DNA from: an uncultured Bdellovibrionales bacterium
GTDB lineage: Bacteria > Patescibacteriota > Minisyncoccia > Moranbacterales > UBA1568
Assembly: GCA_964450795.1 (NCBI GenBank)
Contig: CAYVDI010000004.1
Location: 4,207 to 37,323 of the forward strand
Length of the DNA: 33,117 nt
Direction: 5' to 3'
This document shows positions 6,803-32,880 of this stretch, piece after piece. Made by a program: the position numbers and the translations under genes. The notes under the pieces were generated by a model. The model was not told the DNA's origin. It saw only the letters and a list, made by a program, of their open reading frames with translations, and did no database searches. Within the stretch, counting starts at the first letter, position 1. Each line of letters opens with the position of its first letter.

Positions 6803-8302
6803 ATGAATCCATCGGATACCAGGGAAATAACCCCCTACAAACGGGAGATGCGGACCGAAAGGATGAAGGTCCCGGTCGTCTTCCATGTGCAGGAGTCGCT
6901 CATGCCGAACGAGGCGACCCTGAGACAGCTCGAGAGCGTCGCCGGCAATCATTGCGTCTCACATCATATCGCCGCGATGGCGGACGTGCACAGCAAACTC
7001 GGCCGCAAGAACGCGACCGGTACGACGGTCGTTTCCGAATCCGCCATCCTGCCACAGCTCAACGACTCAGATCCCGCCTGCGGCATGCGCCTCGTCCGGA
7101 CGAATCTCACCGAAGACAACACGACACCGGAAGAGCTGGAAAAACTTTTCCAAGCACTCGTCCCCCGAGTCCCGACGAAAGCCTATGTCGGAACCTATCT
7201 CCCCTTCCGCGTCATCGTCGACATCGCGCGCAAGGGCATCGCGCCGCTCATCGAATATCTGGGTATCACGACGAAATACGAGGCAGAAAATTCCCTCGAC
7301 CGCGGCAACTTCTTCGCCGAGGAAAAATCATCGCGGTATATCAAGGACATCATCCCGTCGCTCTTCCTCTTCTTCGCGCAGTTCCGCTCGGGTATTCTCG
7401 GAGCCGCCGGCAACCACTTCCTCGACCTCATGAAGGTGACCGACATCGAGGATCCCGTCCTCGCGGAGAAGCTCGGCGTGAAGAAGGGTCAGTATCTTTT
7501 CATGATCCACTGCGGATCCGGGATCCTCGGGCAGTACACCATGTACATGTACACCGCGAAGAAACGCGAGCACAAATCGACCGCGATCCTCATGAACATC
7601 GGCCGGTTCTTCTGGCGCACGCCCTTCCGCAAGACCGTCGACGCGATCGCCAAGAAGATCCGCGAGTCCGACTTCGGAAAGAAGGAGCCGCTCATCGAAT
7701 TCACCGGCGAAGAGGCGGACCTCTACATGGCCGCGCGCAACGCCTGCTCCAACTTCGCCCACGCGAACCGCGCCGTCATCGCGCATAACGTCTCGGAAAC
7801 GATCAAGGAAGTCCTCGGGCGCGATCCGGAAATGGAGCTCCTCTACGACATGCCGCACATCCTCGTCTCCCGCGAGGAACATTTCGGAAAATCGCTGTGG
7901 GTGCACCGCAACGGGACATCCCGCGCCTACGGTCCGTCGCGCATGTCCGACCACCCGGTGTTCAAGGAAACCGGCGAACCGGCATTCATCCCGACCTCCA
8001 TGTCGACGGAAGCCTATCTTTGTGTCGGTCAGGATGGCAACGACTCCACATTCTACTCTTGCAACCACGGCGCCGGAAAATCGAAGGAGAAGACGGATTC
8101 CGTCGTCCCCGAAAACAAATCCGAACTCGACGCGAAACTCGCCACCAAGGGCGTCACCCTCTACAACGGTCGTTCCTCCAAAGTCATCGAACAGGACTCC
8201 TCGCACTACAAGCAGGCGGCGGACGTCATCGCGAGCGCCAAGGAAAACGGCGTCGTCAAACCCGTCGCCAAAATGCAACCCGTCTCGGTCATAATGTATT
8301 AG
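6803..8302 (+). CDS. rtcB: RtcB-family RNA 3'-phosphate/5'-OH ligase (divergent member)
   Basis: RtcB motifs appear in the canonical order. They are MADVHSKLG (PDxH-like), SDPACGMRL (D..C metal site), AAGNHFLDL (GNHF), HCGSGILG (HSGSRGLG-like), NFAHANRAV, DMPHILVSRE, IPTSMSTEAYL (IPGSMG-like) and SCNHGAGKS (the HGAG guanylyl-His motif). Confidence 0.85.
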   Translation: MNPSDTREITPYKREMRTERMKVPVVFHVQESLMPNEATLRQLESVAGNHCVSHHIAAMADVHSKLGRKNATGTTVVSESAILPQLNDSDPACGMRLVRTNLTEDNTTPEELEKLFQALVPRVPTKAYVGTYLPFRVIVDIARKGIAPLIEYLGITTKYEAENSLDRGNFFAEEKSSRYIKDIIPSLFLFFAQFRSGILGAAGNHFLDLMKVTDIEDPVLAEKLGVKKGQYLFMIHCGSGILGQYTMYMYTAKKREHKSTAILMNIGRFFWRTPFRKTVDAIAKKIRESDFGKKEPLIEFTGEEADLYMAARNACSNFAHANRAVIAHNVSETIKEVLGRDPEMELLYDMPHILVSREEHFGKSLWVHRNGTSRAYGPSRMSDHPVFKETGEPAFIPTSMSTEAYLCVGQDGNDSTFYSCNHGAGKSKEKTDSVVPENKSELDAKLATKGVTLYNGRSSKVIEQDSSHYKQAADVIASAKENGVVKPVAKMQPVSVIMY

Positions 8303-8344
8303 GTATTTGGTATTTGGTATTTGGTATCCCGTATCATGTATAAA
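8296..8344 (+). repeat. Tandem heptad array A: seven GTATnnn units (three perfect GTATTTG) overlapping the rtcB stop codon
   Basis: The array reads GTATTAG GTATTTG GTATTTG GTATTTG GTATCCC GTATCAT GTATAAA. The TAG of the first unit is the rtcB stop. CCCGTAT (8328-8334) can pair with ATACGGG (8349-8355). Confidence 0.9.
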
Positions 8345-8377
8345 ACGCATACGGGGAGAAAACCGAGACAAGAAAAG

Positions 8378-8415
8378 ACCGCTTCGTCATGTTGACCGAA
8401 GCGGTTTTCGTTTGT
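8378..8415. terminator. Bidirectional intrinsic terminator (rtcB on +, RHH gene on -)
   Basis: ACCGCTTCG..TCA pairs with TGA.CCGAAGCGGT, a stem of about 12 bp with one bulge. TTTTCGTTTG follows on the + strand. An A-rich run (agaaaag) precedes it, which gives a T-run on the minus strand. Confidence 0.7.
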
Positions 8416-8450: not shown

Positions 8451-8732
8451 TTACACATCATTGTTTCGACGTACCTGGACAAGTTGCAGGAAAATCCTGA
8501 TAGACATCGGCCTTCCGAGCGCTTTGATAACAGGAATCATTCCTTCAACATCCTCGACTGTCAACAAGGTATCGTGATTTGACTCGGAAGTACCCTGCCC
8601 CTGCGAAGCAAGGTATTGCTCAACAGCCTGATTGATGAGGTTTGAAACCGTTGATCCATCCCTCTCCGCCAACTTCTTCAATGCCAATTGAGATTCCTTG
8701 GACAATCTAACCGTTACAGGAGCCTTTGTCAC
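8451..8732 (-). CDS. Ribbon-helix-helix (CopG/Arc/MetJ-like) DNA-binding protein with an unassigned C-terminal half
   Basis: A GTG start at 8732 is preceded by a strong SD (GGAGGTGAT, 7-nt spacing). The N-terminus APVTVRLSKESQLALKKLAERDGSTVSNLINQAVEQYL fits the RHH beta-strand plus two helices. The gene is visibly AT-richer than its neighbours. Confidence 0.7.
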   Translation of the reverse strand: MTKAPVTVRLSKESQLALKKLAERDGSTVSNLINQAVEQYLASQGQGTSESNHDTLLTVEDVEGMIPVIKALGRPMSIRIFLQLVQVRRNNDV

Positions 8733-8811: not shown

Positions 8812-10124
8812 TACTTTCGCGCCACGAATCCGGCGAGCAGGAAGAAAAATAATAGCCCGAAATGCGATGACCAGAACCAGTGGTCGAGGAGGAGGCTCGG
8901 AAGAAGAATGAGAAGGATTGCGGATTTTTGGCTGAAGATTCTTGATCGAAAGACAGAAACCAGGAAGCCGACAAACAGGATCAAACCGATCACTCCAAGC
9001 TCGGCGAAAACGAGCGCAAAAACGTTATGCGCCGGCTGAACGCTCCAGACGGGACGAGTCGGCTCGTTTTCCATGACCACCTTCGTGAAGTTTCCCGCAC
9101 CGACCCCGATGATCGGATGCGCCGCGATGAGCGTCTTCGCATCGGCAAGCGACACGATCCGTTCCGATACCGATCCTTCCCGCGTGATCGTCGCCCCGTC
9201 GAACCGCGGAAATATCTGGTCGCGGAGAACAAAAACGAACATGAATAAGGCAAGAGCAAGTACCCCGAGTATCCGCGCACGCTGTTTTCCCCATACGTGA
9301 TACCTGATACAAGACACACAATACGCGACGATTCCCATCGCCGCTCCCAGCCATGCCGCGCGGGAGAACGTGAGGATGAGACCCAAGAGAAGAATGGCGA
9401 ATGAGGAATAGCAAATGATGAATGAAAACCACGATTCCCGATTCCGTATACGTGATATGTGATACGAAATACCCAATACGAAAACTGCCGCCAAGAATCC
9501 CCCGAGCATGTTCGGATGTGGAAAGGATCCATATGCGCGGAGAAAGCGCTCCGTCTCGAGTTTGAGCACCGACGTTCCTGCCCACCACGATTCATGGGTG
9601 CTCATACCGAGGAGTGCGGACGCCGGACTCGACTGATAGAGAAACTGCCCTACCGCAAGCATGCTTTGCAGCACCGCCGCCGCGAGCAGGACTTTCACCG
9701 CGGTTTTCATGTCCACATCATCCAATGACCGGACAAGAAAAAACACGCCAGCCCCGAGAAGAAGCTTCACGAAGAAGTACCCTGCAAGCACGGCATCCTG
9801 CACCCAGAAAATAGAAAGACCGGACCAGAGAACAAGAAGGATAAGGGCTGTATCTTGTATTTTGTATTTCGTATTATGTATTTCCCCATACGTGATACCT
9901 GATACGAGATACTTGATACCAAACACGCGATGTTTCTTCAACCAACCAAAAACAACAAACACCAATGCACCAACCACGAACACGTCGGTTAAATACACCC
10001 CGATCGTTCCGTACTGCCACTTCTCCCCGTTCACAAACGGTTCGCGCAGCAAAAGCACCGTCTGGGACGGAAGAAGGAAGAGAAAGGAAAAAAATAGGTT
10101 TCTTGAAAGTTTCTTGAAGTCCAT
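8808..10124 (-). CDS. O-antigen ligase family protein (Wzy_C domain), carrying three repeat-derived insertions
   Basis: It is a polytopic protein. Wzy_C-type motifs are LRAYGSFPHPNMLGGFLA and TFSRAAWLGAAMG. Three loop segments (CIRYHVWGK, GISYHISRIRN, GIKYLVSGITYGEIHNTKYKIQDT) are encoded by GTAT/ATAC heptad arrays. Confidence 0.85.
   Translation of the reverse strand: MDFKKLSRNLFFSFLFLLPSQTVLLLREPFVNGEKWQYGTIGVYLTDVFVVGALVFVVFGWLKKHRVFGIKYLVSGITYGEIHNTKYKIQDTALILLVLWSGLSIFWVQDAVLAGYFFVKLLLGAGVFFLVRSLDDVDMKTAVKVLLAAAVLQSMLAVGQFLYQSSPASALLGMSTHESWWAGTSVLKLETERFLRAYGSFPHPNMLGGFLAAVFVLGISYHISRIRNRESWFSFIICYSSFAILLLGLILTFSRAAWLGAAMGIVAYCVSCIRYHVWGKQRARILGVLALALFMFVFVLRDQIFPRFDGATITREGSVSERIVSLADAKTLIAAHPIIGVGAGNFTKVVMENEPTRPVWSVQPAHNVFALVFAELGVIGLILFVGFLVSVFRSRIFSQKSAILLILLPSLLLDHWFWSSHFGLLFFFLLAGFVARKY
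9290..9324 (+). repeat. Heptad array B (five nnnATAC units) inside the Wzy_C CDS
   Basis: The array reads CCCATAC GTGATAC CTGATAC AAGACAC ACAATAC. Positions 9286-9310 are identical to 9881-9905. Confidence 0.9.
9445..9479 (+). repeat. Heptad array C (five nnnATAC units) inside the Wzy_C CDS
   Basis: The array reads CGTATAC GTGATAT GTGATAC GAAATAC CCAATAC. Confidence 0.85.
9850..9926 (+). repeat. Heptad array D: five GTATnnn units followed in phase by six nnnATAC units (imperfect 77-nt palindrome) inside the Wzy_C CDS
   Basis: The array reads GTATCTT GTATTTT GTATTTC GTATTAT GTATTTC CCCATAC GTGATAC CTGATAC GAGATAC TTGATAC CAAACAC. Confidence 0.9.
10098..10119 (+). repeat. Tandem 11-mer (GTTTCTTGAAA GTTTCTTGAAG) at codons 3-10 of the Wzy_C gene
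   Basis: Two adjacent 11-nt copies match at 10 of 11 positions. On the coding strand they read TTCAAGAAACT TTCAAGAAACC directly after ATG GAC. Confidence 0.8.
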
Positions 10125-19286: not shown

Positions 19287-22112
19287 ATGCCTCGTTTCAG
19301 TCGCTCCAAGATCGGAATATCCGTCGGAAGTTGGAAATCGGAAATCGGAAATTTTTTTTCAAGAGTACCGTTGAAGAGATGCGGTTCCCTCGCTTCGCTC
19401 ACCGTCATTCTCACGATCCATTTCTTCTTCGGCCTCCAGCATATCGGCAGTTTCATCACCGCCGATGAGCATTACTGGGTCGATGAGCGGATCCCGCAAT
19501 ATTGGGAGGCCTGGTCCGAAGGAAAGTGGCGGAAAACGCTCATCAACGACAAACCGGGAATAAGCCTCGCGCTCATCTCCGGTCCAGCACTCCTCCTGAA
19601 CGAAAAAACGGCGCTTCGCTGCGAAGAAAAAGACGGGTGGTTTTCGGGATGCGATCCGGAAAAAACCTCCGCGCTCTACGCCTCGTTCCGGATTCCCATA
19701 CTTCTTCTCAATGGCGTTTTTCTTGTTCTCATCTTCCTCTCGATACGGGTGATTTCCGGACCGATTGTCGCCGCCGCATCCGCGGGACTTATGGCGCTTT
19801 CCCCGAACCTGCTCGGGATATCACAGATCATCAATCCGGACGCGATCCTCTGGTCATCCGGATCGACCGCCATATTCGCATTTCTTGCGTTCCTCAAAAG
19901 CGGGAGGAAACCGTACGCGTTCCTTTCGGTCGCCGCGCTCACGTTCGCATTGCTTTCGAAATACACGGCGATCATCATCATCTTCTTTCTCCCGTTCGTC
20001 GCGCTCTCGATACGGTTCCTTGATCCCGGATTCTCCCCGATTCCGCTCAAGAAAAAACTCGCGTCCCTCGTCGGAATATCGACGATACCGTTCCTTCTCT
20101 TTCCTATGTTTGTCCCCGGCGTCCTTTCTTCCGAAGAAAGAATCACCGCCTTTCTCACCGCCGGAACCGGGTCGTTTCTTCCGTGGATCGGCTACGCGGC
20201 GCTTCTCGGCGTACTGACAGCAGTCGCAGTCCTCCGTATCCCGAAAAAGACCGAAGTCCTCCTCAGGAATACGACCCGATACTCGCTTCGCATACCGGCG
20301 GTGGCATTCGTCGGACTCGCTGTCTGGCTTGTCATCGGAAGAATGACGATTCCGAACTGGAATATCTTCACCGCCATCCCGTTCGATATCAAGGATCTCA
20401 CCAATGCCCGGTACTATCTCCCGGATCCGCTTTCCCCTCTCGATATCGCCTTTCTCGAGATATCCCCCTTCATCTACGGCCTTCCGCTCGTGACCGCGCT
20501 CTTCGCGCTCTTTGCGGTCGTTCTCGCTGCCGTATCCAAAAAACGTGACGAGTTGCCGATAACCCTGATTCTTACTTTCTTCGTCATCCTGCTCATCGCC
20601 GCGCTCGGATTCTCGAATGTTTTCGCGATTCCCCGATACGTCATTCTCGCATTCCCCATAGCATCCTATATCGCCGCCCTCGGCATGAAGGAGGCCTGGG
20701 AACTTCTCCCGAAACGATCCCGGTCGGGAAAATTTCCGATTATTCTCGCCGGAATCGTCGCTCTCGTCTCGCTCGGGAGTCTCCTCTCAAGCAAGCCGTA
20801 CTACGCGAACTTCGCGAATATGCTCCTCCCGAAAACATCGCTTATCTCGCACTCCTGGGGATACGGCGGATACGAGGCCGCCATGTACCTCAACGCGCTC
20901 CCGGACGCAAGAAACACCACCATCTGGAGCGACTACTACGGCGTCTGTGAGTTCTTCGTCGGCCGATGTCTCACCGCCTACACCTTCGACCCGAAAATCG
21001 CCCCGGACTACTACGTTCTCACCCGCCGCGGACAGCTCCGCTACATGCCGAAATACGAAAAATGGGAGGAAAAGTCAGGACTTGTCGCATACCAATACTA
21101 CGACCGTACGGATCCGCTCTGGAGTCTCAGCATAAACGGGAAAAATGAGAATTTCGTGAAGGTCTTCCGCGTCGATAACGAGCTCCGCGCGAGCGTCATC
21201 ACCGACATAGACCATTGCGTTTCCCGCGCACCGGTCCCGGAATCCCTTTTCGGGAACTTCACCTCATTTTCCGATGAAACCGGGTCGGATTTCATCATCA
21301 GCCTCGGGGACAACATCAGTCACCGGCTCCAAGGATGCTCGAAAACCGCCGCGACCGATCTCCCGTATGTCATGAATCGTCTCGATCGGGCCAGAGCCGA
21401 AGATCACTATGTTCTCGGGGACCACGATCTCGGAAGCAGCAAAGAGTCATACCAACTGTGGCTTTCCCTCACCGGACGGGAATCCACATACTATTCGTTC
21501 GATACGAAGGGGGCGCACATCGTCGTGCTCGACACCATCACGGGAGGAGAACCGATCGTTCAGACCTGCGAAGAAAGCTCCGAATGTGACAAGAGTCACA
21601 AGGAAAAGGCGAAGCTTGATGCCATTCTCCGGGATCCGAAACTCCTTTCCGCCTACCTCGCAGAGACGGGGAAAAGCCGGGCCGAAACGCTCACGGACCG
21701 CGCGAACATCACGAAACACTACCGAGACGAGCTTGCCGTCATACACATGGTGCGCGATGCGAGCGACCGCGACCGCGGGATGGTGCTCGACCGCGAACTC
21801 GATTGGCTCGAAGCCGACCTCGCAAGAACATCCGCTGATCGCGTAATCGTCTTCTCCGACCACCCGCTCATCCCCTTCTCATCACCGAAAAAGAGCTACG
21901 ATATCCTGAACGGTGCCACGGTCCGTGAAATTCTTGAAAAGAGCGGCAAGGAAGTCGTCGCCATTTCCGGCGAGGCGCATCTCTGGCATGAGGAGGAGCG
22001 AAACGGGATACGCTATTTCATCGTCAACCAGTTCCGGGCATCTCCCGGTGGAACATGGGCGTCCGTCTCCTGGGACAAGACCGGATTCCGGTTCGAACGC
22101 GTAGAACGATAA
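19287..22112 (+). CDS. Fusion protein: GT-C (GT39-like) membrane glycosyltransferase plus a C-terminal metallophosphoesterase-like domain
   Basis: The N-terminal 620 aa or so are paralogous to the preceding gene (ITADEHYWVDERIPQYW..INDKPGISLALISG, IINPDAILW, YEAAMYLNALPDARNTTIWSD..VCEFFVGRC). The C-terminal 300 aa or so carry Metallophos-like motifs in order: DIDH (21204-21215), GDNI (21306-), GDHD (21417-21428), SDHP (21855-) and GEAHLWH (21969-21989). The start may instead be TTG 19371, downstream of a heptad array. Confidence 0.85.
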   Translation: MPRFSRSKIGISVGSWKSEIGNFFSRVPLKRCGSLASLTVILTIHFFFGLQHIGSFITADEHYWVDERIPQYWEAWSEGKWRKTLINDKPGISLALISGPALLLNEKTALRCEEKDGWFSGCDPEKTSALYASFRIPILLLNGVFLVLIFLSIRVISGPIVAAASAGLMALSPNLLGISQIINPDAILWSSGSTAIFAFLAFLKSGRKPYAFLSVAALTFALLSKYTAIIIIFFLPFVALSIRFLDPGFSPIPLKKKLASLVGISTIPFLLFPMFVPGVLSSEERITAFLTAGTGSFLPWIGYAALLGVLTAVAVLRIPKKTEVLLRNTTRYSLRIPAVAFVGLAVWLVIGRMTIPNWNIFTAIPFDIKDLTNARYYLPDPLSPLDIAFLEISPFIYGLPLVTALFALFAVVLAAVSKKRDELPITLILTFFVILLIAALGFSNVFAIPRYVILAFPIASYIAALGMKEAWELLPKRSRSGKFPIILAGIVALVSLGSLLSSKPYYANFANMLLPKTSLISHSWGYGGYEAAMYLNALPDARNTTIWSDYYGVCEFFVGRCLTAYTFDPKIAPDYYVLTRRGQLRYMPKYEKWEEKSGLVAYQYYDRTDPLWSLSINGKNENFVKVFRVDNELRASVITDIDHCVSRAPVPESLFGNFTSFSDETGSDFIISLGDNISHRLQGCSKTAATDLPYVMNRLDRARAEDHYVLGDHDLGSSKESYQLWLSLTGRESTYYSFDTKGAHIVVLDTITGGEPIVQTCEESSECDKSHKEKAKLDAILRDPKLLSAYLAETGKSRAETLTDRANITKHYRDELAVIHMVRDASDRDRGMVLDRELDWLEADLARTSADRVIVFSDHPLIPFSSPKKSYDILNGATVREILEKSGKEVVAISGEAHLWHEEERNGIRYFIVNQFRASPGGTWASVSWDKTGFRFERVER
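19326..19353 (+). repeat. Tandem heptad array: GGAAGTT GGAAATC GGAAATC GGAAATT followed by T8
   Basis: Four in-phase 7-nt units lie at 19326-19353 and run into TTTTTTTT (to 19359). The array sits inside the annotated 5' end of the GT-C/phosphoesterase gene, or 11 nt upstream of the alternative TTG start at 19371. Confidence 0.9.
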
Positions 22113-23075: not shown

Positions 23076-24245
23076 CTAATGGTCGGAATCGGAAGGGGTG
23101 ATTTCCAAAAATTTCGCGGCAACCCGCTTCCAACTCATCTCCTCCGCCTTTCGGCGGCTCGCCCCGCTCATCCGCTTCCGGAGATCCTCATCCGCGATCA
23201 GCGTGCCGAGTTTCTCCGCGAGATCCTCCGGAGACCGCTGCTTTACGAAAAGACCGTTCTCCCCGTCACGGACAAGCTCTTCCGTTCCTCCGGTCACCGT
23301 CGCGACGATCGGAAGTCCCGCGGCGAGCGCTTCAAGCACGGTATTGCTCATCCCCTCGTTAAGCGACGGGAGGCAGAACACGTCCGCAAGACCGTAGTAT
23401 TTCGGAAGCTCCTCGTGCGGCACCGCCCCGAAAAATTTCACCTCCTCGGAGACGCCGCATTCTTTCGCGAGCATCTGAAGCGAGGATTTCTCCTCTCCGT
23501 CACCCGCGACCCACAGCTCGACTTTCTCCCGGGTCTTCTCCTTGAGGATCGCCATCGCCCGAACAAGGAACCCGATACCCTTTCGCGGCGTAAGTCGGGA
23601 TACGACCAGGATGCGGAAAAATCCGTCGTGCTCACGTTCCGGATCGGGAGCGAATTCCTCGGTATCCACGCCGTTCGGAATGATCGCGAATGCCTGTTTC
23701 GGCGATGTCTTCGCCGCAAGTTCCGCAAGACCACGACTGTTCGGCACGACCGCGAGGGCCTTTCGCCATACGAGCCTGACGAGCGGTGCAAGGAACAGGT
23801 AGAGTTGATCGTACTTCTCGCTGTATCCGGGAACATCGGACCCCCGCAATGAAACGACGTACGGCATATCGAACTGCCACCGGAACCAAAGCGCGAGTGC
23901 CCCGCACGGGATGCCGAAAAACGCGATCGTCCGATCGAACGGCTTCTCTTTCCGCCACGAATCGCGGATAAGCCCGGAGGAAAAGCGCCATGCGCGAAAG
24001 CTGTACACGAGCAGGTCACGTACCGATTGCGAGTGGATTTTCTCCGGATCCTTGCCGATCGGCAACCGATGCACCCACACCGATCCGCCGACGTGTTCCT
24101 TCTCATATTCTTTCCCCATCCCGCTCGTCACGAGATGAACCTCGACATCCGGCATACGGGAAAACTCGCGCAGGATGTACCGCGTCGCGTTCGCCGCCCC
24201 GCCCCCGAGCGGAGGATACTCGTAATTGAGGAAAAGTATCTTCAT
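23076..24245 (-). CDS. Glycosyltransferase family 4 (GT-B, Glycos_transf_1)
   Basis: The N-terminus is MKILFLNYEYPPLGGGAANATRY. The C-terminal domain reads PSLNEGMSNTVLEALAAGLPIVATVTGGTEELV (EX7E-type). A 3-nt gap separates it from ugd. Confidence 0.9.
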   Translation of the reverse strand: MKILFLNYEYPPLGGGAANATRYILREFSRMPDVEVHLVTSGMGKEYEKEHVGGSVWVHRLPIGKDPEKIHSQSVRDLLVYSFRAWRFSSGLIRDSWRKEKPFDRTIAFFGIPCGALALWFRWQFDMPYVVSLRGSDVPGYSEKYDQLYLFLAPLVRLVWRKALAVVPNSRGLAELAAKTSPKQAFAIIPNGVDTEEFAPDPEREHDGFFRILVVSRLTPRKGIGFLVRAMAILKEKTREKVELWVAGDGEEKSSLQMLAKECGVSEEVKFFGAVPHEELPKYYGLADVFCLPSLNEGMSNTVLEALAAGLPIVATVTGGTEELVRDGENGLFVKQRSPEDLAEKLGTLIADEDLRKRMSGASRRKAEEMSWKRVAAKFLEITPSDSDH

Positions 24246-24248
24246 GCG

Positions 24249-25559
24249 CTACACTCCGATACCGAAATACGTGAACCCGGCTGCTTCCGCCTCCTCCCGC
24301 TCGAGGATATTGCGACCGTCGACGATGACATTCCCCTTCATACGCTTGCTAAGTTCCTTGTAGTCCGCCGTGCGGAACTCGTCCCACTCGGTGACGATGA
24401 CGAGCGCGTCCGCCTTGTCGAGCGCGTCATACTGTTTCGCGACGTATCTCACTTTCGGATTCCTGCCGATGAATCCCTTGGCATTCTCGGTCGCCACCGG
24501 ATCGAACGCCGACACGGTCGCCCCCACCCTCGTGAGCGCCGCGATGATCGAAAGTGCCGGCGCCTCACGGGCATCATCGGTCCGTGGTTTGAACGAAAGC
24601 CCCCAAAGCGCGATCCGCTTCCCCTTGAGCGTCTTGAGTGATTTCTTGAGATGTACGACCGGCAGAAGCTTCTGCTTCTCATTGGCAGCCTCCACCGCTT
24701 CAAGGATGGTGAAGTCCATGCCGTGTTCCTTCCCGGTGTGGATAAGTGCCTTCACATCCTTCGGAAAGCACGAACCGCCATACCCGATTCCGGCATAAAG
24801 GAACCGCGAGCCGATCCGGCTATCGAAACCCATCCCGCGAGACACCTCCTTCACGTTGCCACCGGCCTTATCGATGAACCGAGCGATCTCGTTTATGAAG
24901 GATATCTTGGTTGCGAGGAACGCGTTGCTCGCGTACTTGATGATCTCCGCGCTCTTCACATCGGTCAGCACCACCGGACGCCCGGATCGGGCGATGGGAC
25001 GATAGATCTTCTCCATGATCTCCCATGCACGCTCACTGTCCGCACCGACGACGACCCGATCCGGATTGAGGAAATCCTTGACCGCCGCACCCTCGCGGAG
25101 AAATTCCGGATTCGAGACGACATCGAACTCGAACTTGCCGTCGCTCGCCCGCGCGATCGCCTCACGGACCCGTTCGGCCGTCCCGACCGGGACCGTGGAC
25201 TTGTTCACGAAGATCTTGTATCCGTTCAGGTTCTTCCCGAAGGTTTCCGCCACCGCGAACACGTACTTTAGGTCCGCCTCGCCGGTCTTGGGATCCGGAG
25301 GCGTTCCGACCGCAGAAAAAATCACGTCCGCCTCACGGATCGCGCGTCCGACATCAGTCGTAAACGAGAGGCGCTCCTGCCGCACGTTCTCCTTGACCAG
25401 TTCCTCAAGCCCGAACTCATAGATCGGGATTCCGCCCCGCTTGAGCTTGTCGATCTTCTTCTTGTCGATATCCGCGCAGATCACCTCATGCCCGATTTCC
25501 GCCATACACGTCCCAGATACCAGCCCTACGTACCCCGTCCCGATAAATGCGAGTTTCAT
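24249..25559 (-). CDS. ugd: UDP-glucose 6-dehydrogenase
   Basis: The Rossmann N-terminus is MKLAFIGTGYVGLVSG. The catalytic Cys motif is GYGGSCFPKDV. At 436 aa it has the full three-domain UDPG_MGDP_dh layout. Confidence 0.95.
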   Translation of the reverse strand: MKLAFIGTGYVGLVSGTCMAEIGHEVICADIDKKKIDKLKRGGIPIYEFGLEELVKENVRQERLSFTTDVGRAIREADVIFSAVGTPPDPKTGEADLKYVFAVAETFGKNLNGYKIFVNKSTVPVGTAERVREAIARASDGKFEFDVVSNPEFLREGAAVKDFLNPDRVVVGADSERAWEIMEKIYRPIARSGRPVVLTDVKSAEIIKYASNAFLATKISFINEIARFIDKAGGNVKEVSRGMGFDSRIGSRFLYAGIGYGGSCFPKDVKALIHTGKEHGMDFTILEAVEAANEKQKLLPVVHLKKSLKTLKGKRIALWGLSFKPRTDDAREAPALSIIAALTRVGATVSAFDPVATENAKGFIGRNPKVRYVAKQYDALDKADALVIVTEWDEFRTADYKELSKRMKGNVIVDGRNILEREEAEAAGFTYFGIGV

Positions 25560-25591
25560 AACAGTTAACAGTCAGCAATTAACAATAAACA
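25557..25591 (-). repeat. Heptad array E (minus strand: TGTTTAT TGTTAAT TGCTGAC TGTTAAC TGTTATG) ending in the ugd start codon
   Basis: The + strand reads CATAACA GTTAACA GTCAGCA ATTAACA ATAAACA. The ATG of the last unit is the ugd initiation codon. Its orientation is inverted relative to array F. Confidence 0.9.
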
Positions 25592-25606
25592 AAGTCTTTC
25601 ATTCCC

Positions 25607-25972
25607 CTATTGGTTATCTTTTGCAATCTTCTCCTTAATTCCCTGAATTCTCTTCCAAAGCATCGCCCCTATCTCATCTGTCAACGCCATAAGAGTTTCA
25701 TACTCTTTCTTTGTCATATACTTTTCTCGGGTACAGAAGAATATAAGGTATTTCGTCTCTTTCAGCGATCCATACGATATTTGAAGAAAGTTTTTCAGCT
25801 CCTTGTTCCCCGTTCTTGCGAAACCCTCGACATAATTGAGAATCACAGATAACGCCGCTCTTCGCAATTGCGAAGTAATCCCATAAATCTCATCCCTCGG
25901 AAATTTCTTTGTCACATCATAGACACCCTTCGCAAATCCATCCATTTTTTCTTTCAGGATATCTTTTTCCAT
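25607..25972 (-). CDS. Four-helix-bundle protein (23S rRNA intervening-sequence protein family; same fold family as DGR Avd)
   Basis: The family signature is SQLRRAALSVILNYVEGFARTGNKELKNFLQISYGSLKETKYL. It is 121 aa and visibly AT-rich compared with the flanking genes. Confidence 0.9.
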   Translation of the reverse strand: MEKDILKEKMDGFAKGVYDVTKKFPRDEIYGITSQLRRAALSVILNYVEGFARTGNKELKNFLQISYGSLKETKYLIFFCTREKYMTKKEYETLMALTDEIGAMLWKRIQGIKEKIAKDNQ

Positions 25973-25999
25973 ATCTGTTTTTGTTTCTTCTCCGTTTCC

Positions 26000-26034
26000 C
26001 GTTGACTGTTAACTGTTATTTGTTATCTGTTTTA
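26000..26034 (+). repeat. Heptad array F (CGTTGAC TGTTAAC TGTTATT TGTTATC TGTTTTA, then TGG), overlapping the 3' end of the GT2 gene on the opposite strand
   Basis: Five in-phase units lie on the + strand, and an ATG spans 26034-26036. The antisense of the array encodes the last residues (..IKQITNNS) and the stop of CDS 26009..26953. Confidence 0.9.
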
Positions 26035-26953
26035 TGGAATAGTTCATCCTGTTTCTCTGGCTGTAGTACGTCTTCACCGCGATATCCACGAGGATACCGA
26101 AGATGAAGAGCTGAACCCCGACCAAGACAAGCAGCGTGCCGACCAAGGGCCAGATACGCTCGGCGAGCGAAGCGCCGAGAAACACCTTCTCGACGAACAT
26201 CCATCCGAGTATCCCGATACCGACGACACCAAGGAGAAGCCCCGTCCCGCCGAAAAGGTGTATCGCTCGGTGCGAGTACTTGCGCCAGAACCAGATGAAA
26301 AGCATATCGACGAATCCTTTGATCGCGCGCTTCCAGTTGTATTTCGTCACGCCGTGGATCCGCGGGTGATGCGAGACTTTCACCTCCGACACGCGGAAAC
26401 CGTCGAGCTGGAGCAAGGCCGGCATGAACCGGTGCATCTCCCCGAAGAGGTCGACTCCATCGAAACATTCGCGACGATACGCCTTGAGACTGCATCCCGA
26501 ATCGTGGATCCCGTCCTTCACGAGTCCCTTACGGAGCAGGTTCGCCCCGCGGGAGAAGAATTTCTTCATGAGGGAATCCTTCCGCTTGAAGCGCCACCCG
26601 GAGACGATATCGTATCCCTTGTCCATCTCCTCAAGTAGGAGCGGGATGTCCGCCGGATCGTTCTGAAGGTCGCCGTCCATCGTGATGACGATATCCCCCG
26701 TCGCCTTCTTGATCCCCGCGTCGAACGCCGCCGTCTGTCCGAAGTTCTTGCGGAACTCGACGAGCGTCAAAGGTGACAGTTCGCGACACAGTTCGACCGT
26801 CTTATCCTTCGAACCGTCATCGACGAAGATGATCTCGAACGGTCGTCCGATCTTTTCGAACGCCTCCCGGATCCGCTTGTGCAACTCAACTACATTCCCC
26901 TCCTCGTTGTATATCGGCACCACCGCCGACAGATACGGTTTCCCGTTTTCCAT
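26009..26953 (-). CDS. GT2 polyprenyl-phosphate glycosyltransferase (Dpm1/ArnC/GtrB-like)
   Basis: Motifs are LSAVVPIYNEEGN, EIIFVDDGSKDKT and TMDGDLQNDP. Two C-terminal TM helices match ArnC/GtrB-type enzymes. Confidence 0.9.
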   Translation of the reverse strand: MENGKPYLSAVVPIYNEEGNVVELHKRIREAFEKIGRPFEIIFVDDGSKDKTVELCRELSPLTLVEFRKNFGQTAAFDAGIKKATGDIVITMDGDLQNDPADIPLLLEEMDKGYDIVSGWRFKRKDSLMKKFFSRGANLLRKGLVKDGIHDSGCSLKAYRRECFDGVDLFGEMHRFMPALLQLDGFRVSEVKVSHHPRIHGVTKYNWKRAIKGFVDMLFIWFWRKYSHRAIHLFGGTGLLLGVVGIGILGWMFVEKVFLGASLAERIWPLVGTLLVLVGVQLFIFGILVDIAVKTYYSQRNRMNYSIKQITNNS

Positions 26954-30599: not shown

Positions 30600-31775
30600 T
30601 TACCTTATTTCTCCTCCCCAAATATATCCTTCGAAATTCGGAACTTCGGATCGTCCGACGAGACGATGTTTTTTTACGCCAGCAAGTTCCGAAAGTTTTC
30701 CAAGCTTCTTCCCATCCTGAAACACCGGAGATTCCTTCACCTCAAGCGCCACCTTGCCATCAAGAATGAAATCAATCTCTCTCCCGCTCTTCGTGGAATA
30801 ATACTGAATCAATCCATGATGTCGAAGCTGATTAAAGACAGCGTTTTCAAACTTCGATCCACTGCTCGTATCAGCGAGAATATCAAGTAATCCATTGTCA
30901 CAGAAATACAATTTTTTCGCTTTCACGATTTCCCTGTCCGGATTATTCGTAAGAACCGGGACGCGCGCGATGATGTACGTCTGTTCGAAAAAATCCATGT
31001 AGTTTTTCACCGTCTCCCTGGTCATCCCGGATAGTCTGGCCATTTTCGCATAATCGATCTTCGTTCCGACCCTCTGCGAAAGCATCTTAAGCAAGTTCTG
31101 GACATTATCCAGATTCCTGAAATCTGCCAGTGTCTTTATATCGATCCGTGTATAGGAATCAAGTATGTCAAAGAGCAGGCTTTTCTTATCTTCCGCTTTC
31201 GGAATCAGAACGACTTCAGGAAAACCACCAAAGGTTACATATTCTTCATAGTATCCCCTCAGCCGCTCATATTCATGGACGTTGAAGTCCTTTTCAAGAA
31301 AATCCGCGTCCGTATGTGGCGCACCCTTGAAGTCCAGAAACTCGGAAAAGTCCAGTGGGTAGAGCTCAAAGATTCTTTTCCGCCCGGAAAGTGATTCTGA
31401 AAAAAAATTCTTCAGATAATAGGAGCTCGAACCGGTAACGACAAATTTTATCTTGTAATGATCGTAAAGGTATTTGAGGACACTCGGAATATTTTTTACA
31501 AGCTGAATCTCATCAAGGAAAAGATACGACTTCTTACTAAGGTCAATCCCGAATTGCTCCAGGCTGTTCGCGATCGAATCATAATTTTTCTGCGAAAAGA
31601 GATCTCTATTGTCCAATCGCTCAAAATCCAAATACAGCTTGTTTTCAGATACAAGCTCCCCCATGAGGTACTTTATAGCGGTCGTCTTTCCGGTCCGACG
31701 CATACCGGTTAAAACGGTGATATGCGGACTTTCCAGATGCTCTTTTAAAAGCGGATATAGCCTTCTTGGAAACAT
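30600..31775 (-). CDS. AAA+ ATPase with a C-terminal DUF4143 domain (AAA_14 family)
   Basis: Walker A is GMRRTGKTT and Walker B is YLFLDEIQ. The family layout is typical and the length is 391 aa. It is visibly AT-rich compared with the flanking GT genes. Confidence 0.9.
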   Translation of the reverse strand: MFPRRLYPLLKEHLESPHITVLTGMRRTGKTTAIKYLMGELVSENKLYLDFERLDNRDLFSQKNYDSIANSLEQFGIDLSKKSYLFLDEIQLVKNIPSVLKYLYDHYKIKFVVTGSSSYYLKNFFSESLSGRKRIFELYPLDFSEFLDFKGAPHTDADFLEKDFNVHEYERLRGYYEEYVTFGGFPEVVLIPKAEDKKSLLFDILDSYTRIDIKTLADFRNLDNVQNLLKMLSQRVGTKIDYAKMARLSGMTRETVKNYMDFFEQTYIIARVPVLTNNPDREIVKAKKLYFCDNGLLDILADTSSGSKFENAVFNQLRHHGLIQYYSTKSGREIDFILDGKVALEVKESPVFQDGKKLGKLSELAGVKKHRLVGRSEVPNFEGYIWGGEIR

Positions 31776-32801: not shown

Positions 32802-32809
32802 TCCACATT

Positions 32810-32833
32810 GTCATTCCCGCGAAAGCGGGGACC
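32810..32833 (+). repeat. GNRA-loop hairpin element GTCATTCCCGCGAAAGCGGGGACC
   Basis: TTCCCGC (32814-32820) pairs with GCGGGGA (32825-32831) around a GAAA loop. No U-tract follows. Confidence 0.8.
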
Positions 32834-32845
32834 AGTGTATTCCAA

Positions 32846-32880
32846 TGTTTATCGTTAACTGTTAACTGTTCACTGAATAT
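32846..32880 (+). repeat. Heptad array G (TGTTTAT CGTTAAC TGTTAAC TGTTCAC TGAATAT) ending at the DUF2304 start codon
   Basis: Five in-phase units lie at 32846-32880, and ATG 32879-32881 begins inside the last unit. It belongs to the same family, and has the same five-unit length, as arrays E and F. Confidence 0.9.

Follow-up and report, generated by a model that had tools for sequence, protein, structure and literature searches.

The window analysed here is a stretch of 33,117 nucleotides, assigned by the names of its homologues to Candidatus Moranbacteria (Patescibacteria) of the Candidate Phyla Radiation (CPR), and forms a cell-envelope glycan region with genes for GT2, GT4, GtrA, PMT_2-type transferases, an O-antigen-ligase-like protein, flippases and ugd. 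The element under study lies on the minus strand between two of these genes and consists of a four-helix-bundle (4HB) protein gene of the 23S rRNA intervening sequence (IVS) protein/TIGR02436 family (25607–25972; 121 aa), enclosed by two tandem arrays of degenerate heptads in inverted orientation. The upstream operon gene encodes a family-2 glycosyltransferase (GT2) of 314 aa (26009–26953, minus strand; PF00535, E 6.6e-34) and the downstream gene, ugd, a UDP-glucose 6-dehydrogenase of 436 aa (24249–25559, minus strand). The array-gene-array island is an AT-rich segment of 478 bp that fills the entire gap from the GT2 stop codon to the ugd start codon.

The 5' array (array F; 26000–26034; Tandem Repeats Finder (TRF) period 7, 4.4 copies) reads CGTTGAC TGTTAAC TGTTATT TGTTATC TGTTTTA on the plus strand, which in operon sense (minus strand) gives the five degenerate heptads TAAAACA GATAACA AATAACA GTTAACA GTCAACG of the 5' stem arm. 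The 3' array (array E; 25557–25591, minus strand) forms the 3' stem arm and reads TGTTTAT TGTTAAT TGCTGAC TGTTAAC TGTTATG. An initial annotation of this DNA had described both arrays, and their sequences, coordinates and strands all checked out, as did its description of an AT-rich segment with the 4HB gene as the only open reading frame (ORF) between them. The exact inverted repeat that it had reported at the two ends was also found and proved longer than noted, being 17 nt according to the repeat finder (ATAACAGTTAACAGTCA / TGACTGTTAACTGTTAT), with 100% complementary copies at 25558–25574 and 26003–26019, the second of which holds the GT2 stop codon. This core is nested in arms of 31–33 nt that are 73–74% complementary and separated by 403–428 nt. 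Within the window, TGTTNNNTGTTNNNTGTT with at most one mismatch gave nine matches where 0.05 were expected by chance, and the 17-mer with at most three mismatches gave four matches where 0.02 were expected. GC content was 0.36–0.43 over 25500–26100 compared to 0.53–0.65 on either side, a drop of 15–20 points. The 4HB start codon is set off from the 5' array by a purine-rich spacer (25973–25999, minus strand; GGGAAACGGAGAAGAAACAAAAACAGAT) that contains a distant GGAG, while the orthologue in the related locus L009 has AGGAG about 10 nt 5' of the 4HB ATG.

The arrays extend into both neighbouring genes, as the initial annotation had proposed. The ugd ATG (25559–25557) is the closing triplet of the 3' array and no Shine-Dalgarno (SD) sequence precedes it; a terminus of this kind, with two to six or more direct 7-nt copies followed by a start codon, is a trait of repeats of the TAACTGA and short tandemly repeated repetitive (STRR) type. 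At the other end, the GT2 TAA stop and the final 7–8 codons of this gene fall within the 5' array. The further claim that an insertion had rebuilt both gene termini was overstated. Where the consensus of the 313-aa GT2 homologues ends in ...MNYSIREVREQ, the window protein ends in ...MNYSIKQITNNS, so that a tail of KQITNNS replaces REVREQ (+1 aa), and the changes are limited to the final 6–7 codons. GT2 length is steady among homologues at 313–314 aa, and the ugd N-terminus is unaltered with the array contributing the ATG only. No promoter or terminator consensus was found in 25300–26300, including the cassette and its purine-rich spacer, so that co-transcription with GT2 and ugd is the simplest reading of the cassette. 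A promoter or terminator role of the arrays was rejected as these consensus sites were absent. No Rfam family matched the window.

Profile scores place the 4HB protein in the PF05635 (E 1.3e-29; 102.9 bits, cut-off 33.8) and TIGR02436 (E 8e-29; 100 bits, cut-off 24) families. Its AlphaFold2 model (pLDDT 94.7) has helices at residues 5–21, 32–52, 56–82 and 88–120 and was matched by Foldseek to XCC0516 (2GSC) with a TM score of 0.87–0.94 and a root-mean-square deviation of about 1 Å. The motif RxxxSxxxNxxE, which is conserved in the 23S rRNA IVS protein family (PMC3936711), was present, with R38, S42, N46 and E49 invariant in an alignment of 42 relatives. Each of two solved homologues, 2GSC and 2RLD, contains five chains, and the Xanthomonas family protein is a homopentamer (PMC4990558). 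Comparison of the window gene with its orthologues gave dN/dS values of 0.01–0.06 at a synonymous divergence of about 1 to saturated, a substitution pattern indicating that the 4HB protein is under strong purifying selection and is functional. No second 4HB gene occurred among the ORFs scanned in the window. Members of the PF05635/TIGR02436 family are very common, with 2,088 significant matches in the first search and more than 599 matching stretches in the genome scan; two structures have been solved, yet the family is without a known function.

The initial annotation had connected this protein family with both rRNA intervening sequences and the accessory proteins of diversity-generating retroelements (DGRs). 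The former association agreed with the IVS-protein membership above. The latter did not extend to this gene, which scores below the Avd equivalog cut-off and has no reverse transcriptase among the ORFs scanned in the window. Weak bAvd matches (PF22296, E 7.7e-11; NF033474, 38.3 bits) and a four-helix-bundle fold similar to that of Avd (4DWL, 8UB7; TM about 0.79), with five chains in the Avd entries as in 2GSC and 2RLD, might suggest an orphan Avd left behind by a DGR. However, NF033474 has a cut-off of 80 bits, the fold alignments showed 15–18% identity, and the best matches were PF05635/TIGR02436 and 2GSC. The ORFs scanned in the window included no reverse transcriptase and no other 4HB gene, no template or variable repeats accompany the gene, and it is kept inside a glycan operon in eight lineages. 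A DGR remnant was rejected on the missing reverse transcriptase and the score below the Avd cut-off, and we regard it as hardly credible.

The layout seen in the window recurred in a wide range of bacteria. The 42-sequence alignment of 4HB relatives was used as the query for a scan of a genome collection, which yielded 80 loci from species representatives spanning CPR phyla, Planctomycetota, Bacteroidota, Elusimicrobia, Omnitrophota, Ignavibacteria, Anaerolineales, Verrucomicrobia and others, and flank statistics were calculated for 82 loci comprising the window, relatives and these 80 representatives. On inspection, nearly every 4HB gene proved to have tandem repeats of 7 or 8 nt in both flanks, with a repeat unit that varied by locus. 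When flanks were scored as periodic if their best-window value at lag 7 or 8 was above the background 95th percentile, 80% of upstream and 80% of downstream flanks passed, with at least one periodic flank in 95% of loci and both in 66%. By comparison, 1–11% passed at control lags (5/6, 9/10, 10/11) and 15% of control boundaries, situated beside other long ORFs in the same loci, were periodic. Upstream and downstream periods agreed in 53 of 54 loci, and TRF assigned a period of 7, 8, 14 or 16 to 138 of 152 flanks, with medians of 4.6 copies and 35 nt per array. The expectation that other 4HB genes would also be repeat-flanked was thus almost always upheld, with a unit differing between loci. 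Full-text literature searches, which did not extend to subscription journals, found no paper that ties 4HB genes generally to flanking inverted heptad arrays.

Pairing between the two flanks was stronger within a locus (RNAduplex mean −37.1 kcal/mol) than between flanks of different loci (−21.9 kcal/mol) or in a direct-orientation control (−23.0 kcal/mol), and the inverted orientation was favoured in 66 of 81 loci (Wilcoxon p 2e-12). Flank k-mer similarity increased with protein identity, from 0.013 for pairs below 50% identity to 0.20 for those above 80%, cross-phylum pairs included, indicating that the ORF is passed on and transferred together with its two arrays as a unit. Rfam identified no rRNA in the window, and none of the 80 related loci was situated in an rRNA gene. 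In 49 of 76 loci the 4HB gene had co-directional ORFs no more than 100 nt away on each side, at median gaps of 49 and 42 nt, which is roughly the length of one array. Overall, the module is an evolutionary unit across phyla, with arms that are complementary within a locus and a repeat sequence that differs between types; it sits co-directionally in operons and has been gained, lost, replaced and internally deleted among close relatives.

The history of the GT2–ugd junction was followed in such relatives. Cassettes of the window type (A type, with AACA/TGTT arrays) occupied this junction also in L017, L009/L010, L013, L014, L221, L222 and L223, with 4HB identities to the window protein from 93% down to 74% that roughly paralleled GT2 divergence across at least eight lineages, and with an equal GC deficit. 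The inserted and possibly mobile mini-cassette of the initial annotation could be taken as a recent arrival betrayed by foreign base composition, for which speak the fall in GC content and the terminal inverted repeats, and the near-identical strain L098 does lack the gene. The conservation of the junction down to 74% identity, together with synonymous sites that range from about 1 to saturated, nevertheless indicates that the copy is old and not a recent insertion. The base-composition break is real, but in 84 of 86 loci, whatever the host, the 4HB ORF exceeds its surroundings in AT content, so that AT-richness is a family trait which does not date the insertion and gives no sign of recent transfer. 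Neither was a target-site duplication visible when occupied and empty junctions were compared. Recent insertion is accordingly a very unlikely account of this copy. What stood of the mobile cassette was a discrete unit gained, lost and replaced in relatives; the A-type copy itself is fixed at one junction in all eight lineages seen.

Locus L098 allowed the empty-site comparison that the initial annotation had suggested. Over the 2.8 kb between 29131 and about 26282 its identity to the window is 99–100%, and it has no 4HB gene at the junction, where the GT2 end reads AAAACAAGTAACTGTTAAATAA and is followed by an unrelated palindromic element and then AGGAGG before ugd. The stretch AAAACAAGTAACTGTTAAATAA resembles one 5' unit fused to the end of a 3' array, which would suit an excision footprint. 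However, identity to the window falls to 81% in the final 270 nt of GT2 and is 76–95% through ugd, and this drop upstream of the junction places the presence/absence difference in a recombined tract. Window and L098, otherwise one population, are separated by a recombination boundary at about 26130–26290, just upstream of the cassette. The palindromic element of L098 (6943–7005), which takes the place of the 4HB cassette between GT2 and ugd and supplies the AGGAGG before ugd, is a longer version of a second repeat family that occurs in the window at 32806–32835 as a GTCATTCC...GGAATGAC-type palindrome (window: GTCATTCCCGCGAAAGCGGGGAC).

Other relatives carried different cassettes. At the GT2–ugd junction, both L097 (GT2 protein 96% identical) and L099 (82%) had a cassette of another type (B type, with ACCA/TGGT arrays), with the ORF cut to 15 codons in L097 and 34 codons in L099. 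The same type was full-length at the GT4–flippase junction in L009/L010, with the L009 paralogue at 6906–7277, and present there as an internally deleted copy in L098, and its ends, about 45 nt, aligned near-identically at the two sites. A third type (ACACA/TGTGT arrays) lay at the ugd–GT4 junction, as read directly in L013 and found by tblastn in L017. These second, divergent 4HB genes (L017 4775–5143; L013 5762–6121) are situated downstream of the first, with array flanks read in L013. In the window the ugd–GT4 and GT4–flippase junctions are both empty, the former being just 3 nt (24245–24249). This varied occupancy reflects a cassette class that inserts at several stop/start junctions and decays to miniature ORF-less forms.

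Folding of the sense transcript of the window cassette placed the two arrays in a closing stem around the whole ORF in both the minimum free energy and the centroid structure (z −2.2), and the arms of two further cassette types in relatives likewise formed a closing stem (z −3.7 and −2.9). In the A-type orthologues the arms shared 38–47 pairs (RNAduplex). The 5' arm of the perfect 17-bp core contains the GT2 stop codon and the 3' arm ends with the ugd AUG, a geometry that recurred in the orthologues and in other cassette types.

We consider it probable that the window element is a resident copy of a widespread, promoterless, IVS-like gene cassette of about 480 bp in a CPR glycan operon. The cassette would be co-transcribed with the GT2–ugd operon, and pairing of its arms would give a stem, perfect over 17 bp and imperfect over about 40 bp, in which the ORF is looped out as in a 23S IVS and the GT2 stop in the 5' arm comes to lie beside the ugd AUG that ends the 3' arm. 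Processing by RNase III, or unwinding by ribosomes completing GT2, may then allow expression of the SD-less ugd in spite of the insert. The most likely targets of the pentameric 4HB protein are the repeat arrays, in the form of either RNA or DNA.

Several observations weigh against this interpretation. Flanks at three loci (L045, L065 and L094) were direct and not inverted. Sense and antisense pairing were nearly equal (−37.1 vs −35.7 kcal/mol; sense better in 50 of 81 loci, p 0.04), and a stem at the RNA level is thus inseparable from one at the DNA level on these data. Among the eight A-type orthologues no base-pair covariation was detected and own and cross-orthologue arm pairings were equally good, because all eight have one repeat unit; the support for pairing comes from differences between cassette types. 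The difference in L098 belongs to a recombined tract and is no clean excision, and mobility is apparent for the cassette class (B type, at two sites) only and not for this A-type copy. RNase III cleavage and translational coupling are putative steps in this organism. Finally, a stem by itself leaves the 7–8-nt tandem-repeat form of the arms unexplained. The restriction to a 7–8-nt unit, the 4–5 copies and the flavour specificity of the arrays argue for selection on more than a stem, and repeat binding by the 4HB protein is an obvious candidate role.

Arrays were not confined to 4HB genes, as solo arrays and empty inverted pairs were common. The window contains one solo array of the cassette type at 32846–32873 (plus strand; TGTTTAT CGTTAAC TGTTAAC TGTTCAC), which stops 5 nt short of the ATG of a DUF2304-type gene and has no 4HB gene in its vicinity. 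Its equivalents vary in copy number, with L009 having just GTTTATCGTTAAC and L098 lacking any spacer. Further heptad arrays detected by TRF were of the GTAT/ATAC type, including GTATTTG in 4.6 copies (8296–8334) at the stop of an RtcB gene (6803–8302) and ATAC-type arrays (9448–9483) in the O-antigen-ligase-like ORF (PF04932; 8808–10124, minus strand). This ORF also contains, in frame, an empty inverted pair of TGTATNT in 5 copies beside ATACNNG in 4.6 copies (9849–9919), which has the architecture of the cassette arms without an ORF between them. The in-frame arrays encode (S/G)I(K/R)Y-type loop peptides, e.g. FGIKYLVSGITY. Homologues at about 55% identity have similar peptides at three corresponding places, and a 92%-identical homologue (P0241) lacks the first of the array peptides and does not have the inverted pair. 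Since gain or loss of one 7-nt unit shifts the frame, these arrays could act as a phase-variation switch.

A census of solo arrays covered 508 kb of related loci with about 3 kb of flank per genome, arrays beside any 4HB-like region being excluded, and found 103 solo arrays without a 4HB gene. Their sharing of 6-mers was higher with the resident cassette (0.161) than with other cassettes (0.066; p 3e-4), and the resident cassette was the single best match for 14 of the 103 where 1.2 were expected. Empty inverted pairs with the cognate unit were located in L037 (4560–4637), L069 (3981–4048), L063 (1761–1820) and L092 (588–704). A metagenome scan for GGTATNN in four copies recovered mostly heterogeneous, solo, microsatellite-like arrays, with a 4HB gene at 3 of 120 loci, and the GTAT-type arrays of the window had no matching 4HB gene within its 33 kb.

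These arrays could alternatively be host expression elements, serving SD-independent initiation or as regulatory leaders as has been proposed for TAACTGA repeats, among which the 4HB gene merely tends to sit. In the window, all orthologues and many other loci, the downstream ATG lacks an SD and either falls at the end of the 3' array or follows it within a few nt, and the solo array before the DUF2304-type gene is similarly placed. Periodic arrays at 15% of other gene boundaries fit the same idea, and TAACTGA arrays are reported to stop about 1 nt short of start codons, where SDs are few (PMC4679880). Yet this explanation does not account for a matching inverted array 5' of the 4HB ORF, for the enrichment at 4HB flanks (80% vs 15%), for a repeat flavour that follows the 4HB protein across phyla or for arrays within ORFs, and it appears unlikely.

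A possible alternative, somewhat better placed though still short of favoured, is a protein-repeat system comparable to repetitive extragenic palindromic (REP) sequences and their associated RAYT transposases, in which the heptad arrays have a sequence-specific partner in the 4HB pentamer, which maintains, spreads or regulates them. Each paralogue would recognise its own repeat flavour, both in its flanks and in solo arrays or empty hairpins at other places in the genome. This system overlaps with the IVS-like cassette reading, and the data are consistent with the protein-repeat interaction that the initial annotation had suggested. Each cassette type keeps its unit across genomes while cassette types within one genome differ, and array similarity follows protein identity. 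The confinement of the period to 7–8 nt agrees with such a partner, and the clustering of copy number at 4–5 (median 4.6) can be set beside the five chains of 2GSC and 2RLD and the Xanthomonas homopentamer. Additionally, the fold relative Avd belongs to a solved DGR ribonucleoprotein complex (8UB7), and solo arrays share 6-mers with the resident cassette. Against this, the putative partner, the 4HB protein, has no recognisable catalytic or nucleic-acid-binding motif. An ORF and arms co-inherited as a unit would alone yield a protein-repeat correlation, and cognate solo arrays within 3 kb are explicable by local duplication. The GTAT-type arrays, with their unmatched copies in the window and rare 4HB neighbours in metagenomes, likewise speak against it.

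More speculatively, 4HB proteins might be the missing trans-acting partners of 7–8-nt tandem arrays in general, including STRRs, the TAACTGA repeats of Beggiatoa and those of CPR bacteria, with a pentamer reading about five units of its own flavour, a gene placed between inverted arrays in the manner of a RAYT gene between REPs, and the rRNA IVS as a special case that came to lie in rRNA. If true, protein and repeats would together make up a genetic element of a new class that has no classical transposase. If the layout is general, rRNA IVSs, stand-alone 'S23p' operon genes (those among cas genes included) and heptamer arrays would become one testable system. The arrays also matter for annotation, as they alter the last codons of upstream genes, supply start contexts downstream and insert in frame into membrane-protein loops.

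Several other features of the window were observed. The GTATTTG array after RtcB is succeeded by a small hairpin of GTAT/ATAC type and by a stem that resembles a terminator and has a T-run (GACCGCTTCG...CGAAGCGGTTTTCGTTT; features within 8296–8340 and 8375–8415). A small ribbon-helix-helix (CopG-like) ORF in a low-GC patch (about 0.45) at 8451–8732 (minus strand) is possibly a regulator or an antitoxin, and no partner gene is evident. A TCGGAAA heptad array of 4.1 copies (19324–19352, plus strand) lies in the 5' end of a 941-aa PMT_2-type ORF and encodes SKIGISVGSWKSEIG. An AT-rich AAA_14/DUF4143 ATPase gene (30600–31775, minus strand; GC about 0.38–0.46) belongs to a block with PMT_2, amino-oxidase and GtrA genes that is missing from L009/L010, where two GT2 genes are directly divergent, and this ATPase-bearing block is a second variable segment of the locus.

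Comparison with known systems separates the cassette from several classes of mobile element. An integron-type cassette was rejected, as the repeats lie in inverted orientation on either side of the ORF instead of making up one attC-like site at its 3' end, and the ORFs scanned include no integrase. Transposons with terminal inverted repeats and miniature inverted-repeat transposable elements (MITEs) share with the cassette their terminal repeats, and the B type has conserved ends at two sites while the A type is represented by one site and solo arrays. In contrast to such transposons, no target-site duplication was seen, and the 4HB protein is the sole ORF with no transposase. The Correia elements of Neisseria are transcribed MITEs that are cut by RNase III. 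Both transcribed MITEs and REP/REPIN–RAYT systems (PMC3116915) resemble the cassette in their intergenic co-transcribed sites and in their internally deleted miniature derivatives, and perhaps also in that a few protein genes are flanked by inverted short repeats which are dispersed singly or as hairpin doublets as well. As to such dispersal, one same-type solo array was present in the window, and within the roughly 3 kb of flank per genome cognate solo arrays were enriched near cassettes (14 best matches vs 1.2 expected). Unlike RAYTs, the 4HB protein is no HUH/Y1 transposase and has no known catalytic site, PF05635 and PF22296 being the sole matches of the cassette ORF in the profile search, and the arms are 7–8-nt tandem arrays instead of single palindromic REPs, with no target-site duplication seen.

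A closer resemblance exists to heptamer arrays. Heptamers of the STRR type were reportedly described from cyanobacteria by Mazel and colleagues in 1990. Like STRR and TAACTGA arrays, those of the cassette are degenerate direct 7-nt repeats, in 2–6 copies in most sets, that end just 5' of SD-less start codons and sometimes lie inside ORFs. The unit TAACTGT found here is one base from TAACTGA, and both have a patchy cross-phylum spread, TAACTGA arrays being known from Beggiatoaceae, cyanobacteria and Bacteroidetes (MacGregor 2015; PMC4679880). That study gave no mechanism of spread and no tie to 4HB genes, and its arrays are essentially direct only (one 'indirect' case), whereas here they occur as inverted pairs around one gene family (PMC4679880).

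The closest known system is the 23S rRNA intervening sequence of Coxiella burnetii, a 428-nt element in 23S rRNA with an S23p ORF, a 28-bp terminal stem cut by RNase III and 2–3 tandem GACAGAT heptamers 5' of the ORF, for which the origin and the role of the protein have been left unexplained (PMC4990558). A 23S rRNA IVS with an S23p/PF05635 ORF is also attributed to Leptospira (Ralph & McClelland 1993, as cited in PMC4990558), and 23S_rRNA_IVP ORFs occur in some insertions of CPR rRNA genes (PMC11270868). Outside rRNA, eighteen 23S_rRNA_IVP genes lie inside cas operons, e.g. between cmr3 and cmr2 (PMC3936711). The window cassette differs from the 23S IVS in that its host transcript is a protein-coding operon and not helix 25/45 of 23S rRNA, and in that its arms overlap a stop and a start codon. 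RNase III excision is known from Coxiella whereas we infer it here, and the 4HB ORF is under strong purifying selection while the Coxiella ORF has been suggested to be decaying and untranslated (PMC4990558). Because the defining rRNA location is absent, the cassette was not filed as a 23S IVS. In both systems, however, terminal inverted repeats form a long stem, here a predicted one, around a PF05635/S23p-family ORF in the loop, in elements of 400–750 nt overall (428–444 nt vs 478 nt here). Both have tandem heptamers of variable copy number 5' of the ORF (five here, at 26000–26034), sit in a transcribed unit, and are patchily distributed with ORF decay in some copies. On this analogy the cassette is regarded as probably working like a 23S IVS.

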